Source: an uncultured delta proteobacterium | GTDB lineage: Bacteria > Myxococcota_A > Polyangia > Fen-1088 | Direction of reading: 5' to 3' | DNA: 64,000 nucleotides | NCBI GenBank assembly: GCA_963737265.1 | Contig: CAVTRY010000023.1 | Span: forward strand, 485,999-549,998 | In this document: positions 18,513-59,224 of the stretch, piece after piece | Numbering within the stretch: position 1 is the stretch's first letter | How the letters are laid out: each line of letters opens with the position of its first letter | Program-made: the position numbers and the translations under genes | The notes under the pieces: generated by a model | What the model was told of the DNA's origin: nothing | Database searches by the model: none | Seen by the model: only the letters and a program-made list of their open reading frames with translations

Positions 18513-19856
18513 ATGCGTCGTTGCTCTTTTCTTCTTCTGTTGCTCGCCGCTTGCGGCTCGGATCAGACGCTGGAATTCGACCTTTATCCCATCCAGCTCG
18601 CGCGGGCGCCGATACAGCCGGGCGGCGCCACCGTCGGGGGCCTCTTGGCCAAGGTGAACACTCCTACTGGCGTTGAACCGCTCCTGGTCGATTCGGCGTC
18701 TCCGCTCAACAGCCTTGGTCAGCAGGGGTGCACCGGCGCCCAGGCTCCCGGATGGACGTATACCGGCAACATCGATTTGCTCAACGGAGCGAGCGGCGTC
18801 TTGCGCGCCTCCTTCGGCAACGTTGGGCTTTTCGACATCTGCCCCGGCCCCGTCGGGGATGCGTCGGTGCAGCCCGCGGGCGTGGTGGGCGGCTCGCTCC
18901 TCGCCAACTTCTCGGTCGGACTCACCCTGCCGAGCGATCCCGCCAAGGCCGCGAGCATGACGTTGTGGCCAAGCTTCCCCGGGACCGACGACCAGCTCAA
19001 CCAAGACGGCTGGGCGACGCTGCATTTTAGTCTGCGTGGCAGCGGATCGGTGGCACAAGGCAATGGCGAGGCGTCGGTGACGCTACCCAATTCCCTCGCC
19101 GTGCTTTCTGCCTGCGCCGCCCCGCGCGCCTTCGCCACCACCGATCCACTAGAAACCTGCGCCCTCAGCGAAGTCGCCATCAAGTCGAGCGGCGAGAATC
19201 TGCTGCTCGCGGTCGGCACCGGGGAAGGCCCGCTCGTCCTCAGCCAGTCCGCCTGGGCGCGCATCGCGAATGACACGGGACTTTCACCCGACTCGGGCAC
19301 CGCGGGCGATCTTTACACACCCTTTGCGACGACGGCTGTTCAGGCGCTCTTCGTGTCCCTGCCCGGGCTGGCGATTCTACAAGGCACGACCGACAACACT
19401 TGGACCGGCGCCTGCGCCGAGTTGGCCAGCGCGCGCCGGATCGAATGGGTCCTTGCCAACCAAAAGAGCGTGGACAACCCGACCGGCACTGCGTGCTTTC
19501 AACCCTGCGACGCCAGCGGCGGCCAGGCGCTTACCACCCGCTCGTATCTCGAGCTTGGCGGCCCGTTGTTGGCGGCCGTGGTCAGCGACACCAGCGTTGT
19601 CATCACCACGCTCAATTCCGACGTGCCCGCCAATCCCGTGGTCGACGGGATCGTCGGCGCCGGCACCCTGGCGGGAACGAACCTGCGGCTAGATTATCCG
19701 GCGCAACCCAATGGGCGGGTCATCGCGGCCTGCGACAGCGCCTCGACCCGCGACACCTGCTGGGCTGCACCCAGTTGCCCGAGCCTGAGCGCGAACGGAC
19801 AGACCCACACCTGCTTCGGGCAAGATTCGCGCGGGCTGGCGCCGGTGTGTCCCTAA
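18513..19856 (+). CDS. Lipoprotein with degenerate bilobed aspartyl-protease-like fold
   Basis: Lipobox LAAC; LLVDSAS...GVVGGSLL and LAVGTG...DGIVG motifs. Confidence 0.6.
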   Translation: MRRCSFLLLLLAACGSDQTLEFDLYPIQLARAPIQPGGATVGGLLAKVNTPTGVEPLLVDSASPLNSLGQQGCTGAQAPGWTYTGNIDLLNGASGVLRASFGNVGLFDICPGPVGDASVQPAGVVGGSLLANFSVGLTLPSDPAKAASMTLWPSFPGTDDQLNQDGWATLHFSLRGSGSVAQGNGEASVTLPNSLAVLSACAAPRAFATTDPLETCALSEVAIKSSGENLLLAVGTGEGPLVLSQSAWARIANDTGLSPDSGTAGDLYTPFATTAVQALFVSLPGLAILQGTTDNTWTGACAELASARRIEWVLANQKSVDNPTGTACFQPCDASGGQALTTRSYLELGGPLLAAVVSDTSVVITTLNSDVPANPVVDGIVGAGTLAGTNLRLDYPAQPNGRVIAACDSASTRDTCWAAPSCPSLSANGQTHTCFGQDSRGLAPVCP

Positions 19857-51718: not shown

Positions 51719-52337
51719 GGAACCCTCCGAGGGTATCCATCTCGAACGCGTAGGTGAAGCCGGGCTTGGCCCGGCGGAGCCAGAGCGCGGGAAGGTTTGG
51801 AAACCCTCCGAGGGTATCCATCTCGATCGCGTAGGCGAAGCCGGGTTGGCCCGGCGGAGCCAGAGCGCGGGAAGGTTTGGAAACCCTCCGAGGGTATCCA
51901 TCTCGATCGCGTAGGCGAAGCCGGGTTGGCCCGGCGGAGCCAGAGCGCGGGAAGGTTTGGAAACCCTCGGGACCTGCCACACACCCTTCCCACCCCTCGG
52001 GCTTCGCCCTCGCCCTCGCAGGGTATCCATCTCGAACGCGTAGGCGCAGCCGGGCTTAGCCCGGCGGAGCCAGAGCGCGGGAAGGTTTGGAAACCCTCGG
52101 GACCTGCCACGCACCCTTCCCACCCCTCGGGCTTCGCCCTCGCCCTCGCAGGGTATCCATCTCGAACGCGTAGGCGCAGCCGGGCTTAGCCCGGCGGAGC
52201 CAGAGCGCGGGAAGGTTTGGAAACCCTCGGGACCTGCCACACACCCTTCCCACCCCTCGGTCTTTGCCCTCGCCCTCGCAGGGTATCCATCTCGAACGCG
52301 TAGGCGCAGCCGGGCTTAGCCCGGCGGAGCCAGAGCC
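51719..52337. repeat. REP/BIME-like tandem array: three ~80-bp units plus three 130-bp units with a nested 50-bp insert
   Basis: AAACCCTC recurs at 51801, 51881, 51961, 52091, 52221; units hold ACCCTC/GAGGGT and GCCGGG/CCCGGC stems and a GTAG. Confidence 0.9.
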
Positions 52338-52912
52338 GTCAGCAACCACGACTGGTAACTCCTCCTGTTGGTGCCGGACTTGCGCGACCAGTCCAGCACG
52401 ATATGCCGCGCGTTCAGCAGAATCGGCAACCCCAGGCGTAGAAGGCAGATCAGCGGGCGGCGGCGGGACCGGAACTGACAATCCACGCGGCTGCCACTGC
52501 GGGGCTCAAGCAACTTTCGTGCCCCGCTGACCGACATCCTCCTTCATGGAGGCAGCGGCATGCGCAAAACCTGCGACCGGGTACACCTATGCCCGCCGGG
52601 AGCCGGAAAAGACCGCCCTTTTCCAGGTGCTCCAGCAGCATCTTCTGACCTTCGAGCAGGAGTGGACCGACAAGTCCGACGGCCGCACGCTGCCCAGCTT
52701 CGTCACCGAGGAGCTGCACGACTTCATGGGCTGTGGCGTCTTGGCCAGAGGCTTCGCACAACTTTTCTGTAAAACCTGCCACGAGCGGTACGTCGTGGCC
52801 TGGAGCTGTAAGGGTCGCGGCTTCTGTCCGAGCTGCGGCGGCAGACGCATGAACGCAGGAGCGCTGACTCTTGTCGACCACGTGCTGCCCGAAGTGCCCA
52901 TCCGACAATTCG

Positions 52913-52961
52913 CGACGGGCGCGGCGAAGCCGCGTGGGGCAGGGGCAGGGCGGGCAGGCCC
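52913..52961 (+). mobile_element. Hairpin/G-tract mini-insertion 1 (49 bp)
   Basis: Absent from copy 2; removal gives TTC GTA GTT ACG CTG. Confidence 0.85.
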
Positions 52962-53337
52962 TAGTTACGCTGCCTTTCCCGCTGAGGTTTCCCTTGGCCT
53001 TCGACGGAAAACTACTCGGCCAAGTCCTGCGCATCTTCATCGACACCGTGGCGGCCAACTACCGCAAGCGCCTGACGGCTCGGGGTATTGCCGACGGCGA
53101 GTGCGGCGCCGTCACGGTCATCCAGCGCGCCAACAGCGACCTGCGTCTCTCCCCGCATTTTCATGTCCTCCAGCTCGATGGCTGCTACGCCCCTGGGCGC
53201 GACGGCGGTACGCCCATCTTCCACCCGGCGCCGGAACTTGCCCAACAGGACGTCCTTGCCATCGTCGCGCGCGCCAGCAAGCGCATCCTCCGCTTCCTAA
53301 AGCGTCGCGGTGTCATCACCCTCGTCACCGCCCCCGG

Positions 53338-53404
53338 CGAGGGCACGCGCGAAGCGCGTGGGGTGGGTAGGTGGAGGGGTAGGTCCCGAAGTCCCCGAAG
53401 GGGG
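53338..53404 (+). mobile_element. Mini-insertion 2 (67 bp, divergent variant with tail hairpin)
   Basis: Removal gives CCC GGA GAC GGT (PGDG). Confidence 0.85.
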
Positions 53405-53525
53405 AGACGGTGAGCTCACCGTCGTCACCGACGAAACCATGGGCGACAAAGATCCGCTCCTGGCCCGCTTGTTGGCCGCCGCCACCGCGGGCGCCGCTCC
53501 CGCCGGCCCTGCGCACAAGCGCGCT

Positions 53526-53575
53526 AGGGCCTGCCCGCCCAACCCCTGCCCCACGCGGCTTCGCCGCGCCCGTCG
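53526..53575 (-). mobile_element. Mini-insertion 3 (50 bp)
   Basis: Near reverse complement of insertion 1; removal gives GCT CCC GTG. Confidence 0.85.
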
Positions 53576-53805
53576 CCCGTGCGTATCGTGCTCGACCCAG
53601 ACGCCACTCCCGTGGCCAAGGGCAAGCTATGCGGCCAGCAAGCCGGGTTTAACCTGCATGCGCAGACCAAGGTCGCCGCCAACGACAAGAAGGGTCGCGA
53701 GAACCTGTGCAAGTACATCTTGCGCCCGCCGCTGGCCAACGACCGCCTCAAGATCCTCGACGACGGTCACGTGAGGCTGGAGTTCAAGCGGCCTTGGTCC
53801 GTCGG

Positions 53806-53868
53806 CGACGGGCGCGGCGAAGCCGCGTGGGGCAGGGGTTGGGTGGGTAGGCCCTAGTCCCGTAGGGA
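53806..53868 (+). mobile_element. Mini-insertion 4 (63 bp, tail hairpin)
   Basis: Removal gives GTC GGC ACA TCG. Confidence 0.85.
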
Positions 53869-54202
53869 CACATCGTCAGTTGACCTTGCGCCGCTCGCCC
53901 TTATTGCGCGCTTGGCGGCCTTGGTTCCCCCTCCTCGTCGGCATGTCGTCAGATACTCGGGGGTCATCTCGTCACACTCCAGCCTCCGCAGCCAAGTCGT
54001 CCCAGTCCCCGCCGTGGCCGCGCCCGAGGAAGACGACAAGCCTTCACTGCCACTTTCACACTACATTTCCTGGTCCCAGCTTCTGAAAAAAACGTTCGAG
54101 ATCGACACCGTCTGCCCTCGCTGCAAAACCCCGCTGCGCCTCATCGCCATGGTCGAGACCGAGGACACCATCAAGAAGATTCTCTCTGCCATGGGCTTGC
54201 CC

Positions 54203-54267
54203 TGCTCCTTCGGAGCCTTGGGCCTACCCACCCTGCCCCTGCCCCACGCGGCTGCGCCGCGCCCGTC
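54203..54267 (-). mobile_element. Mini-insertion 5 (65 bp, tail hairpin)
   Basis: Removal gives CCC GCC GAG CCG. Confidence 0.85.
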
Positions 54268-54514
54268 GCCGAGCCGCCCAACCTCTGGCCCGCACGGCCG
54301 CCTCCCTCGCGATCTGGTGGCGAGGGCGGAGACTGGCTGAACTGACGGCACGTCGACCAGGTCGGGATGGAGTCGACTGCCCTGCGGCTCGAGAAAGACC
54401 CCGTCAGACCCCCGAAACCCGGTCAAGTGCGCTGCGCCAACGTGATCGGGGCCGACCTGATGCGGTCCGGCAGGGTTCTCCAACGCTCAAAATACCGCTT
54501 CGAATCGCCTATGG

Positions 54515-55062
54515 CCCGCCAACGCCGCCGCGTCGAGCGCGGATCTGTTGACCGATCTCAAATCAGGCTATCTGCTCGGCGCCCATCCGCGCCGCCAATT
54601 TCTCGCGCAAGCCATCGGCGTCATCGCCGGTACCCTCGCCACCGTGGTCGGCTTCCACCTGCTGGTGCCCGACGCGTCGGTGCTGACCGGCGCGGGCTCG
54701 GGGGCTCCCACTTTCGCGGCACCGAGCGCGCAGACCTGGCTTGCCGTGGCCCAGCTTTTTCAGCACGGCGTTGGCAGCCTTCACCCGATGGCACGGCACG
54801 GAATGGCGTGGGGACTGCTGGCCGGCGCGCTGCTGTCCGCGCTTGAAATCGCCCTGCCCCGCCGGCGACGCTGGATTCCCTCGCCCATCGGCCTCGGCCT
54901 CGGCTTCATCCTGCCCTTCTTCAATCCTTTCTCGATGCTCTTGGGGGCGGTTGGCGCCTGGCTGTGGGCGCGTCGCAACTACGCCCACGCCGAACGTTAC
55001 GTGGTCCCGGTGTCGTCGGGGATCATCGCCGGTGAGTCCATCGTCAGCGTGGCGATAGCTCT
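54515..55062 (+). pseudogene. OPT-family oligopeptide transporter, C-terminal fragment
   Basis: SADLLTDLKSGYLLG, APSAQTW, SGIIAGES; begins directly at the IS end. Confidence 0.8.
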
Positions 55063-57103: not shown

Positions 57104-57305
57104 TGCATGCAAACGCACTTCGAGAGGCAGCTCGGGGAGCAGCAGTCCGATCTCAGCAAGCTACCAAGAGTCAGCCGACTGCCTTGGGCCTGCCTTGGGC
57201 CCCAAGCGCCGCCACCGCCGCAGCCTGGTCGCCGCCGTGGCCGCCTGCCTCAACCAGCGCGACAGCGAACCGCCCCCGGACGAAGGCGCGGGGCGCTGAG
57301 GGCGT

Positions 57306-59023
57306 GCTCAAGCAACTTCCGTGACCCGCTGACCGACATCTTCTTTCATGGAGGCAGCGGCATGCGCAAGACCTGCGACCGGCTACACCTATGCCCGCCG
57401 GGAGCCCGAGAAGACCGCGCTCTTCCAGGTGCTCCAGCAACACCTTCTGACCTTCGAGCAAGAGTGGACCGACAAGTCCGACGGCCGCACGCTGCCCAGC
57501 TTCGTGACCGACGAGCTGCACGACTTCCTAGGCTGTGGCATCCTCGCGCGGGGCTTCGCGCAACTTTTGTGTAAGACCTGCCACCAGCGGTATGCGGTGG
57601 CCTGGAGCTGCAAAGGTCGCGGCTTCTGTCCGAGCTGCGGCGGCAGACGCATGAACGCGGGCGCCCTGACTCTGGTCGACCACGTCCTGCCCGAAGTGCC
57701 CATCCGACAATTCGTGCTGACCGTGCCTTTCCCGCTGAGATTTCCCTTAGCCTTCGAAGGGAAATTGCTCGGCCAAGTCCTGCGCATCTTCATCGACACC
57801 GTCGCGTCCAACTATCGCAGGCGCATGGCAGATCGGGGGATTACCGACGGCGAGTCTGGCGCCGTCACTGTCATCCAGCGCGCCAACAGCGACCTGCGTC
57901 TCTCCCCGCATTTCCACGTTCTCCAGCTCGATGGCGTGTACGCCCCTGGCCGCGACGGCGGTTCCCCCATCTTCCACCCGGCGCCGGAACTTACCCAAGA
58001 GGATGTCCTTGCCATCGTCGAACGCACCAGTAAGCGCATCCTCCGCTTCCTAAAGCGTCGCGGGGTCATCACCCTCGTCACCGCGCCAGGCGACGGTGAA
58101 GTCACCGTCGTCACCGACGAAACCATCGGCGAGAAGGATCCGCTCCTGGCCCGACTCCTGGCCGCCGCCACCGCCGGAGCCTCCCCCGCCGGCCCCGCGC
58201 ACAAGCGGGCGCCTGTGCGCATCGTGCTCGACCCCGACGCCACGCCCGTGGCCAAAGGCAGACTATGCGCCCAGCATGCCGGGTTCAACCTGCATGCCCA
58301 GACCAAAGTCGCCGCCAACGACAAGAAGGGTCGCGAGAACCTGTGCAAGTACATCTTGCGCCCGCCCCTCGCCAACGACCGCCTCAAGATCCTCGACGAT
58401 GGTGACGTGAGGTTGGAGTTCAAGCGCCCGTGGTCCGATGGCACATCGTCGGTCGACCTTGCGCCGCTCGCCCTTATTGCCAGGCTAGCCGCGATCATCC
58501 CCCCTCCGCGTCGTCATGTCGTCAGATATTCGGGGGTCATCTCGTCACACTCCAGCCTCCGTAGCCAAGTCGTCCCAGTCCCGGCCGCGGCCACGCCCGA
58601 GGAAAACGACAAGCCTTCACTGCCCCTTTCCCACTACATTTCTTGGAGCCAGCTCCTGAAAAGGACGTTCGACATCGACACCGTCTGCCCTCGCTGCAAA
58701 ACCCCGCTGCGCCTCATCGCCATGGTCGAGACCGAGGACACCATCAAGAAGATTCTCTCTGCCATGGGCTTGCCCACCGAGCCGCCCAAACTCTGGCCCG
58801 CACGGCCGCCTCCCTCGCGATCTGGTGGCGAGGGCGGAGACTGGCTGAACTGACGGCACGTCGACCAGGTCGGGATGGAGTCGACTGCCCTGCGTGCTCG
58901 AAGAAAGACCCCGTCAGGCCCCAGAAATCCGGTCAAGCGCGCCGCGCCAACGCGATCGGGGCCGACCTGATGCGGTCCGGCAGGGTTCTCCGACGCTCAA
59001 AACACCCTTTGATTCCCCTATGG
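57306..59023 (+). mobile_element. ISCR/IS91-like element, copy 2 (intact)
   Basis: Shares 5' and 3' non-coding ends with copy 1; oriIS-like end TTTGATTCCCCTATGG. Confidence 0.88.
57348..58853 (+). CDS. IS91/ISCR-family HUH rolling-circle transposase with zinc-binding domain
   Basis: CKTC...SCKGRGFCPSC, HUH motif PHFH, single catalytic Tyr (LCKYILRP), C-terminal CPRC. Confidence 0.93.
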   Translation: MEAAACARPATGYTYARREPEKTALFQVLQQHLLTFEQEWTDKSDGRTLPSFVTDELHDFLGCGILARGFAQLLCKTCHQRYAVAWSCKGRGFCPSCGGRRMNAGALTLVDHVLPEVPIRQFVLTVPFPLRFPLAFEGKLLGQVLRIFIDTVASNYRRRMADRGITDGESGAVTVIQRANSDLRLSPHFHVLQLDGVYAPGRDGGSPIFHPAPELTQEDVLAIVERTSKRILRFLKRRGVITLVTAPGDGEVTVVTDETIGEKDPLLARLLAAATAGASPAGPAHKRAPVRIVLDPDATPVAKGRLCAQHAGFNLHAQTKVAANDKKGRENLCKYILRPPLANDRLKILDDGDVRLEFKRPWSDGTSSVDLAPLALIARLAAIIPPPRRHVVRYSGVISSHSSLRSQVVPVPAAATPEENDKPSLPLSHYISWSQLLKRTFDIDTVCPRCKTPLRLIAMVETEDTIKKILSAMGLPTEPPKLWPARPPPSRSGGEGGDWLN

Positions 59024-59224
59024 TCCTTCTGCCAGGCGGACAGTGTTGGGACTTCGCCCGTCGGCAGCATGCCGGAGATCGAGACCCGATGTCTACCTGA
59101 GTTCGATGCCGTTTCAGGATACCGCAGGAAGTCACCTCCTCGGTGGAATTGTGCCACGTTTGTCAGGATCGTCGGTCCGCACTTCTCGGAGACCGCTTCC
59201 ACGCGCATTACCCTCTCCTCGTCT

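Follow-up and report, generated by a model that had tools for sequence, protein, structure and literature searches.

Small repeats of the REP, PATE and miniature inverted-repeat transposable element (MITE) types are normally scattered in intergenic DNA, and the very small dispersed repeats of cyanobacteria are tiny and often nested in insertion sequences (IS) and MITEs. To our knowledge the cyanobacterial repeats are not restricted to one transposase family, and they differ in sequence and host from the elements described here. The IS91/ISCR enzymes matter in the spread of resistance genes in other bacteria. According to one source (PMC13181058), IS91-family ends carry a tetranucleotide beside a subterminal palindrome (terIS CTCG or GTTC), the target beside oriIS is GTTC, CTTG or GTCC and rarely GTCG or CTCG, insertion leaves no duplication, the intermediate is a bottom-strand circle of single-stranded DNA, and minimal terIS-oriIS cassettes move in trans, 89+82-bp ends being sufficient. 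A second source (Di Nocera et al. 2013, PMC3733652) describes CGTC-tagged REPs with stems of 8-9 bp, A/T first positions, loops of 4-5 nt and a CCA tail next to CGTC, found in many gene classes; like the Rickettsia palindromic elements they are small, have no dedicated transposase and in some cases sit inside open reading frames and are read in frame. Here we studied a 64,000-nt stretch of an uncultured delta proteobacterium (the window hereafter; GenBank assembly GCA_963737265.1, contig CAVTRY010000023.1, positions 485,999 to 549,998, forward strand), in which one of two IS91-family copies is interrupted by five short related insertions, the mini-elements. Judged by their sequences, these would represent one family of 50-68-nt non-autonomous insertion elements that is restricted to a single genus. 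C labels below denote contigs of this genome (G000; 6.55 Mb, 63% G+C, 25 contigs), the window being C23:485999-549998; other G numbers denote related genomes and L numbers loci from species genomes or metagenome contigs.

Five members of the family inactivate one IS91 copy of the window, and the family is real, polymorphic, structured and site-patterned on IS91 genes. The interrupted element (copy 1, 52504..54517, plus strand, boundaries set by paralog comparison) has its transposase frame at 52546..54345 on the same strand, and the five mini-insertions break its reading. The second element (copy 2, 57306..59025, plus strand) is intact and without mini-elements. Its transposase gene (57348..58853, plus strand, 501 amino acids (aa)) matched the Pfam domains Y2_Tnp with 81 bits (cut-off 20.9) and Zn_Tnp_IS91 with 55.5 bits (cut-off 26.3), and with both domains detected the carrier gene is classed here as a predicted IS91/ISCR-family transposase. 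A MAFFT alignment of 52480-54420 with 57290-58930 was collinear, with 88% mean column identity and five gaps only, of 49, 67, 50, 63 and 65 columns (294 in total); these match exactly the five family-related insertions listed in an earlier note that had been made from the letters of the window alone. When 52913-52964, 53339-53405, 53526-53575, 53806-53868 and 54203-54267 were excised, copy 1 was left with 1503 nt, or 500 codons with no internal stop, of which 460 are identical to copy 2 at the amino acid level (92%). The stop-free frame claimed in that note was therefore recovered, but not at the same length, being one codon shorter than that of copy 2 (500 vs 501). In place, the five inserts cause four frameshifts and one in-frame TAG, and therefore copy 1 cannot encode a transposase; a profile search runs Y2_Tnp through it with one TGA and two TAG.

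The genome holds three more near-identical copies of copy 2 plus many IS copies and fragments, among them intact, active-looking IS91 copies without any mini-insert. By paralog comparison copy 1 starts at about GCTCAAGCAAC and ends in ...CCTATGGCC, with a sharp right end and left ends that vary between copies. The right end ...CCTATGG(T/C)C is common to ~27 IS91 copies of this genome; left ends are variable, many copies are 5'-truncated, and there are no inverted repeats. One sharp downstream end and another that is variable or truncated are what would be expected of an IS91/ISCR element, to which the carrier can be assigned on this ground as well.

Insert sizes were refined with empty-site paralogs from the same genome whose flanks are 96-100% identical. 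The first insert, e1 (52913..52964, plus orientation), is a 52-nt short form, delimited by MAFFT and empty paralogs, at which the target TGC was lost, leaving a net gain of 49; its variant occupies the same site at C12:78492, C14:368856 and C15:74069. The e2 insert (53339..53405, plus) is a divergent long form of 67 nt with a 2-nt GA ambiguity, and its site is filled at C12:78917, C14:368431 and C19:5948, with four different flank haplotypes. On the minus orientation, e3 (53526..53575) is a short form of 50 nt, or 52 if an AG shared with the target is counted; its site is filled at C14:441794 and C19:5711, and an e3-like site is filled in the metagenome contigs L123, L178 and L185. The e4 insert (53806..53868, plus) is a 63-nt long form and a clean insertion, with an empty paralog at C14:429179/429184 whose flanks are 99% identical. 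It splits the Gly codon of W-S-D-G|T behind its second base, and it stays in frame but brings the TAG. Finally, e5 (54203..54268, minus), a long form of 65-66 nt, lies close to the 3' end of the transposase gene, at G-L-P|T-E-P-P. Compared with empty paralogs at C12:3-334 and C12:82269-82629 (flanks 100% and 99% identical), it represents either 65 nt plus one changed base or 66 nt gained and 1 nt lost. The orientations from e1 to e5 are thus +,+,-,+,-, target duplication is absent at all five sites, and the base before the core is G in 5/5 inserts (GG at four, CG at e1); the presence of both orientations, the lack of duplication and the preceding G had been reported in the earlier note.

The same junctions were seen in a wider comparison. 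Among 35 filled/empty pairs in all the material none has a duplication; the 5' junction is constant and the 3' junction variable. Short-form inserts at 7-8 distinct sites are accompanied by the loss of 2-5 target bases, mostly 3-4, and long-form inserts by the loss of 0-1, three pairs scored at 4-5 being uncertain because of sequence variation or a poor match. Filled and empty forms are both present in contigs of public runs (examined as Logan contigs, with shares of at most 0.30; the best-matching DNA run may derive from the source sample), and one contig of a DNA run bridges the filled e5 site.

Read on the G-rich strand, a mini-element consists of a 5' CGAC-GGG, a first hairpin (CGCGGC-GAA-GCCGCG), four G-runs and a CCCTAG box, after which comes either nothing (the 52-nt short form) or a second hairpin with a GNA triloop (the 63-68-nt long form). 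The five copies of the window align over their length with nhmmer; past hairpin 1 they have G-runs of 4, 4, 3 and 3 with short variable loops, and these are followed by AGGCCCTAG, where e1 and e3 end (52 and 50 nt). The second hairpin, with a GAA or GTA loop, is found in e2, e4 and e5 and is double in e2. This last insert starts with CGA-GGG and carries a compensated variant of hairpin 1 (CGCGC-GAA-GCGCG); the others have CGAC-GGG and a 6-bp stem with a GAA loop, which is GCA in e5. To describe the family at large we pooled and de-duplicated the elements of the genomes and of the listed metagenome matches into 137 distinct contexts, a number that is a lower bound. Across these contexts there are two discrete 3' ends only, and the CGAC start is kept in 106. 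The CCCTAG box is found in 92/131, a G4-type motif of four G-runs in 112 of 131 elements, where most changes affect the loops, and GNA in 62 of 71 second-hairpin loops.

Hairpin 1 is nearly invariant, with one compensated variant, although the scans demanded an exact hairpin 1 (as part of a 23-mer in the metagenomes), so that its conservation there exists by construction. Hairpin 2, on the other hand, shows compensatory changes at three of its five pairs in 27 long-form elements (one pair is U-A in 11, C-G in 9 and A-U in 1); 91.6% of cells are paired, compared with 29-56% when the partner is slid, and 0 of 500 shuffles match the covariation score. In terms of DNA folding energy the short forms are not clearly better than shuffles (z -0.2 and -0.7) and the long forms modestly so (z -1.4 to -3.9), hairpin 1 being the only constant structure. 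GNA triloops on G-C stems are exceptionally stable DNA mini-hairpins, and their occurrence here would fit a role as single-stranded DNA, of which it is proof of nothing. Inverted ends are absent, as CGACGGGC... at one end and ...CCCTAG or hairpin 2 at the other are not inverted repeats; with neither terminal inverted repeats nor a target duplication in the 35 filled/empty pairs, we rejected a cut-and-paste MITE. Because inverted ends and duplication are missing, the 5' junction is fixed after GG and the GNA-triloop hairpins are compensated, the anatomy would suit a single-strand, HUH-type element better than a MITE of that kind.

A structured, non-autonomous family had been proposed before, and this description held. 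A comparison of 52300-54700 with Rfam 15 gave nothing relevant down to a threshold of E=10, the lone hit being RAGATH-4, with 18.8 bits against a gathering score of 104, outside the inserts. Likewise, no paper describing such an element was found in a literature search, supplements being outside its reach. As a separate observation, truncated mini-elements at C11:668036, L058:2337 and L091:5361 are broken off immediately behind TGGGG, where the G-runs begin, and one at C7:295313 ~6 nt deeper; the G-tract may be a point of fragility or of stalling.

Within this genome the family is tied to IS91 genes. A 19-mer spanning the hairpin and the first G-run had four matches in the window at 0-1 mismatch, where shuffles expect 0.16, and one further match with three mismatches at 19120-19138. 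With nhmmer only the five copies were found within the window coordinates, leaving the host genes and copy 2 free of the element, as had been noted earlier. A profile of the five cores gave 27 matches in the genome at E<=10, of which 23 were at E<=1e-4. We delimited IS91-transposase-like DNA by tblastn with three subfamily proteins (65 segments, 41,003 bp, 0.63% of the genome), and all 23 strong matches, together with the next one (E 0.0015), lie inside it. The three weakest (E 0.019-0.59) lie outside, and the intergenic DNA, which is far larger than the IS91-like part, has none of the 23 strong copies. These copies reduce to ~7 sites, namely e1-e5, one site on C13 (duplicated) and one on C22, since each of e1-e5 is present 3-5 times in paralogous IS fragments; 7/7 independent sites in 0.63% of the DNA corresponds to P=3.8e-16. 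The link with rolling-circle IS91 transposons is therefore far beyond chance. IS fragments on C7, C12, C14, C15, C19 and C23 carry inserts at these five sites too, with a variant particular to each site, so the insertions are not peculiar to copy 1, as they had seemed to be from the window.

We then looked beyond this genome, where relatives are known from BLAST lists and ~200 loci. A 29-mer (<=3 mismatches) was detected in 8 of 41 related genomes, all of the same genus (G000 and 7 of its 12 congeners), whereas the 28 genomes from other genera gave no match. When species genomes were scanned for an exact 19-mer, 79 loci were obtained, and the 31 that contain a whole element all come from metagenome-assembled genomes labelled 'Myxococcales' or 'delta proteobacterium'. 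An exact 23-mer scan of metagenome contigs yielded, among the matches listed, 88 elements in 79 of the 80 loci analysed, and 81 of the 88 have IS91 similarity on a flank. In the pooled set, blastx revealed IS91 similarity on a flank in 125/137 contexts, spread over several subfamilies, which bears out the tie to rolling-circle transposons suggested earlier together with the 23/23 strong copies of this genome. Six of the other 12 contexts are recognisable IS91 sites (L003 and L008 by score, L022 by a C-terminal motif, and L009, L130 and L159 by flanks shared with scored sites), which leaves six without an IS91 assignment: L024, L124, L150, L177, L186 and L193.

When the contexts were mapped on the copy 2 protein, they fell into ~24 six-residue bins, all but one of which hold a single orientation. 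Plus-orientation hot spots are located at aa 360-366 (the e4 site, 29 contexts), aa 150-156 (10 contexts) and aa 120-126 (including e1, 7 contexts); minus-orientation ones at aa 474-492 (the e5 region, with at least three nearby different insertion points, 34 contexts), at aa 450 within a C-P-x-C motif (14 contexts) and at aa 276-288 (including e3, 14 contexts). In transposases that are 36-85% identical to copy 2, the e4 site is one and the same nucleotide position, behind the GG of the glycine codon of a (F/L)K..W(S/R)DG|T(T) motif; the inserts there measure 53-65 nt, not always a multiple of three. Upstream of the insertion, base -1 is G in 41 and base -2 in 35 of 42 distinct flanks, GG directly precedes 110 of the 137 contexts, and no longer shared target motif was seen by eye across sites. 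Of 75 contexts with matches on both sides, 41 preserve the frame, and in 18 a single open frame runs across the insert, for the most part in minus orientation and with a net +48 nt; since these counts come from few sites copied many times, we drew no conclusion from frame preservation.

Two observations concern the interrupted proteins themselves. Minus-orientation short forms at which four target bases were lost add a net 48 nt encoding a stop-free peptide like L-G-P-A-R-P-A-P-A-P-R-G-F-A-A-P-V (L058:6580-6631, L036, L142, L144, L178 and others). At the C-P-x-C site the insert destroys the first Cys codon.

The core of the mini-element is also found in longer relatives outside IS91. BLAST with e4 returned many congener matches of 84-89% identity to its bases 5-49, with at least 39 matches in G002; they belong to a repeat of roughly 140 nt as estimated from the sequences. 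This mosaic repeat, intergenic in the congeners, shares the core CGAGGGCGCGGCGAAGCCGCG-G-runs-GGTCCCGAAG with the mini-element and embeds it within further stems, with CCTCGCCCCGC...GCGGGCGAGG on the 5' side and GCCC-AAC-GGGC and more on the 3' side. At one G002 locus (L113:4150-5150) it is tandemly repeated behind a tRNA gene, with 2.8 units of 271 nt. None of the ~15 longer-repeat copies in eight fetched loci lies in an IS91 gene; the short-form copies at G002:C28 do, near aa 55. In G000, weak copies of the long kind are at C12:313579, C12:370695 and C21:80604, and Rfam had no match in three loci with longer relatives. Taken together, the sequences suggest that the short form is one branch, specialised or captured, of a wider repeat family that is specific to the genus.

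The copies within G000 provide information on how the inserts spread. Copy 1 has a 5'-truncated counterpart in a different flank, C14:440851-441857, which matches it at 99.9% identity along 1007 nt, e3-e5 included; therefore interrupted copies are still copied, presumably by transposase from intact copies. Moreover, copy 1 and C12:78067-79120 share e1 and e2 without a single base difference, although the codons around these inserts show a synonymous divergence (dS) of 0.29 and a nonsynonymous to synonymous ratio (dN/dS) of 0.15, and copy 1 is closer to an empty copy on C8 (dS 0.15) than to this segment. The four flank haplotypes of e2 diverge 4-10 nt from the junction, e1 brings a co-transferred marker, TTACGC, into another background, and in general the first flank differences lie 4-14 nt from identical inserts in mosaic flanks. 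Because identical inserts sit in diverged mosaic flanks and each variant matches its site strictly, the inserts appear to pass between IS copies by recombination or copy-choice over very short tracts. Recombination of this sort also imports synonymous-looking differences. The gene of copy 1 has a dN/dS of 0.09-0.22 in its 5' and middle thirds; as intact copies give the same values and the flanks are mosaic, we rejected selection on the interrupted copy. The lack of other decay in the host gene, correctly noted before, is thus a result of recency and of recombination among IS copies rather than of selection.

We compared the family with the systems introduced above. It resembles REP/REPIN-RAYT systems in its short GC-rich hairpins, its non-autonomy, the lack of duplication, the presumed HUH chemistry, the presence of a RAYT-like gene in the genus and the intergenic arrays formed by its longer relatives. 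Unlike them it has no GTAG head, occurs as single units with a G-run tract and a CTAG box, and lies inside IS91 genes rather than extragenically; membership was rejected on the missing GTAG head, the low scores of the RAYT-like frame (47 against a cut-off of 80, and 20.9 against 23 bits) and the different repeats flanking that gene. With PATEs of the IS200/IS605 group it shares subterminal hairpins near both ends of the long form, insertion 3' of a short fixed motif, lack of duplication and orientation specificity, but it is only 50-68 nt long, its target is just GG and its right junction is imprecise. The sites do follow the GG| rule; a genome-wide nhmmer search revealed no resident IS200/IS605 element whose ends match. 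As for CGTC-tagged REPs, the C-rich strand of the mini-element ends in ...CCCGTCG and some of those repeats likewise sit inside genes, but the mini-element is found almost only in one transposase family; its stem is of 6 G-C pairs, its loop is GAA, and a GGG separates the tag from the stem. Measured against the features given in PMC3733652, the stem, the loop and this GGG placed it outside that superfamily.

A further likeness in design is to IS91 ends and to laboratory mini-IS91 (terIS-oriIS cassettes), including one-ended transposition. On the C-rich strand the element reads G(T/C)(T/C)C-hairpin 2, CT(A/T/C)G, C-runs, hairpin 1, CCC and GTCG (CTCG in e2). Like the ends described in PMC13181058, it has a tetranucleotide with a subterminal palindrome and one constant end with alternative ends, makes no duplication, may be mobilisable in trans and is found only with IS91 elements. 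It is unlike them in that its ends differ from those of resident IS91, its target is GG| and not GGTC/GTTC-like, and it occurs in both orientations relative to the carrier. We therefore regard this as a resemblance in design, not as membership; an IS91-derived non-autonomous element with shared terIS/oriIS was rejected, as its ends are unlike those of subfamilies 1 and 2 on either side.

The reading that we favour, with moderate confidence, is that the elements insert by an HUH-type single-strand reaction tied to the rolling-circle transposition of IS91, the IS91 enzyme being the first candidate, and then spread with the IS copies. An HUH-type enzyme would make new insertions on DNA that is single-stranded during rolling-circle transposition, and this coupling would explain why only IS91 DNA is hit. 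The favoured enzyme would be the IS91 Y2 transposase, given the IS91-type end design of the C-rich strand; Y2_Tnp has 28 matches in this genome and is found in 13/13 genomes of the genus. Once resident, an element would ride along as interrupted IS copies are copied in trans and as inserts recombine between diverged IS copies, and the net effect would be that of a hyperparasite knocking out or crippling the transposase genes of its carrier. The HUH mobility on single-stranded DNA proposed in the earlier note is thus compatible with the anatomy; as to the enzyme responsible, the IS91 Y2 is just the favoured candidate. In a more specific form, which we put forward only tentatively, the IS91 Y2 itself would do the cutting and joining of the mini-elements, which would then be rolling-circle elements in miniature, and so an obligate hyperparasite and a brake on IS91 copy number. 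Y2 might stay on the single-stranded copy of its own element, so that mini-elements would land preferentially in the transposase gene of their helper, and the G-run tract and hairpins might additionally stall rolling-circle copying and give rise to truncated IS copies.

Several results weigh against the coupling to IS91 transposition. No enzyme was linked to the element by any test. The ends of the element are unlike those of the two delimited resident IS91 subfamilies, the sole likeness being CCCTAGGTCC vs CCCTATGGTCC (10-11 nt, right end), and its GG| target is unlike the GGTC/GGCC beside resident IS91 ends. IS91 is reported to insert the bottom strand only, yet the element occurs in both orientations. 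Strand transfer by an HUH enzyme would not usually leave so imprecise a 3' junction (microhomology of 0-2 nt, or a loss of 1-5 target bases), and at 52-68 nt the element is far shorter than the 89+82 bp of mini-IS91. No variant was found at two different sites in this genome, so the spread seen here can all be recombination or IS copying and not transposition. In addition, many of the 137 contexts are mutually related and not independent samples.

The main rival, because of these imprecise 3' junctions, is a template switch or repair event, which we consider unlikely. A nascent strand would jump by ..GG microhomology to a single-stranded IS91 carrying the element, copy it as far as a structure at which it stalls (the G-runs or a hairpin) and jump back; spread would be copy-choice or gene conversion, and a few founding events would explain all copies. 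Such a process would leave right junctions with 0-2 nt of microhomology or with 1-5 bases lost, including the 2-5 lost at 7-8 short-form sites, and would agree with the private variant of each site in this genome, with mosaic flanks differing 4-14 nt from identical inserts and the TTACGC co-transferred with e1, and with the elements broken after TGGGG at the start of the G-runs (C11:668036, L058:2337, L091:5361); homology-tethering to IS91 single strands would also account for the restriction to IS91. It is not what the constant 5' end and the two discrete 3' ends across 137 contexts would suggest, and the compensatory changes in hairpin 2 indicate selection acting on a lineage that replicates. 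Furthermore, the same nucleotide position is filled in transposases just 36-56% identical, among which homology-guided copying cannot work, and distinct insertion points lie close together in the e5 region and around aa 150-156.

Somewhat less probable still is that a REP/REPIN-like or PATE-like element is moved by the RAYT-like Y1 HUH enzyme of the genus, IS91 being hit because its rolling-circle form is the main single-stranded DNA in the cell. A RAYT-like Y1 gene, of the kind for which a search had been advised, does exist, as a multi-copy gene with a frame of up to 309 aa (C16:130175-130774, C22:93556-94143 and, outside the window, C23:170311-170904) in which HUH and Y motifs can be recognised by eye; it does not, however, track the element. 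Its scores fall under both family cut-offs (47 bits against 80 for NCBIfam REP_Tyr_transpos and 20.9 against 23 for Pfam Y1_Tnp, the latter being the one sub-threshold match of that domain in the genome). Two elements lie within ~600 nt of Y1 copies or fragments (C22:94807; G005:C58), and the longer related repeat is dispersed and arrayed in congener intergenic DNA, like REP/BIME. Nevertheless, both flanks of the Y1 gene carry non-palindromic tandem repeats, such as GGAAAGACCCTGGCACCACCCAAGCG units, and not the mini-element, there is no GTAG head, and REPIN pairs are absent in IS91 genes. Of the 13 genomes of the genus, 12 carry the gene, some of them without matches to the element: the 29-mer gave nothing in G002, G006 and G007, all with strong Y1 matches, and the 63-nt query gave nothing in the last two. 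We rejected this gene as the helper, as it is available but not linked. On its own account, the Y1 gene with its repeats looks like a mobile unit.

We find it very improbable that the inserts are a reversible switch or 'DNA intron', excised as DNA or as RNA so that the interrupted gene still makes transposase. The frame is intact apart from the inserts, dN/dS against other copies is low in the 5' and middle parts, and 18 of 75 two-sided contexts keep an open frame, mainly in minus orientation; but the low dN/dS is equal against intact copies and explained by mosaic recombination, and intact, active-looking copies lack inserts altogether. The excision to reactivate the gene that the earlier note had entertained is not supported, on three counts. 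The short forms have lost 2-5 target bases, and excision would not restore the gene. Flank-to-flank footprint strings for the 52-nt e1, the 68-nt e2, the 52-nt e3 and the 66-nt e5 had 0 matches in the genome and the loci, and no ribozyme or intron family was matched. Lastly, skip-joints over e1, e4 and e5 in public runs hold TGC, TGCTGACCG, ATGG and A, the letters of empty paralogs (for the e2 joint the letters between the two sides are not given), and thus show empty DNA copies rather than excision or splicing; contigs from RNA libraries that hold the element prove nothing on transcription.

The least probable explanation, an ordinary REP-type dispersed repeat piling up in neutral, dead IS91 genes, is in keeping with the dispersed core-sharing longer relatives (at least 39 BLAST matches in G002, including the 271-nt tandem units beside a tRNA gene) and with the three weak relatives outside IS91 in this genome, but is largely refuted by the 23/23 strong copies in 0.63% of the genome, by carriers that are otherwise intact genes and not decayed pseudogenes (copy 1 of the window, L099), by recurrent positions and fixed orientations that it does not predict and by the 0 of ~15 longer relatives in loci L113-L120 that lie in an IS91 gene. 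The dispersion across neutral DNA that had been named as fatal to a specialised element holds for the longer relative, in congener intergenic DNA, and not for the short form.

A family confined almost to the transposase genes of one IS family, at recurrent codons across subfamilies, would be an unusual case of one mobile element specialised on another. It offers a possible handle on how IS91/ISCR enzymes choose and cut single-stranded DNA and on what limits the proliferation of rolling-circle transposons. For annotation it means that IS91 'pseudogenes' in these genomes are intact genes with 50-68-nt inserts.

Some further features were observed. Another repeat, with an AGGCGC-GAA-GCGCCT hairpin and near-identical flanks of 40-60 nt, occurs at 16 places in G000 (for example C23:3770, C21:283036 and C11:1008750) and is evidently part of a different multi-copy element. 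Most IS91 fragments in G000 retain the right end, the left being cut at query positions 896 to 1540 of 1641, as would be expected if rolling-circle copying had started at oriIS and then aborted. At C12:46189, C19:10099, C14:364248, C14:418361 and in the C23:16580 region the IS91 right end is duplicated in short tandem units of 9-80 nt that end in ...GGTC, GGGC or CGTC; these give the impression of repeated rolling-circle initiation, or repeated insertion, at the end of a resident copy. Finally, a tandem array lies just upstream of copy 1 (51721-52336 in the window), with a period of 80 (3.1 copies) and one of 130 (3.5 copies), and its units contain the hairpin GCCGGGC-TTA-GCCCGGC.

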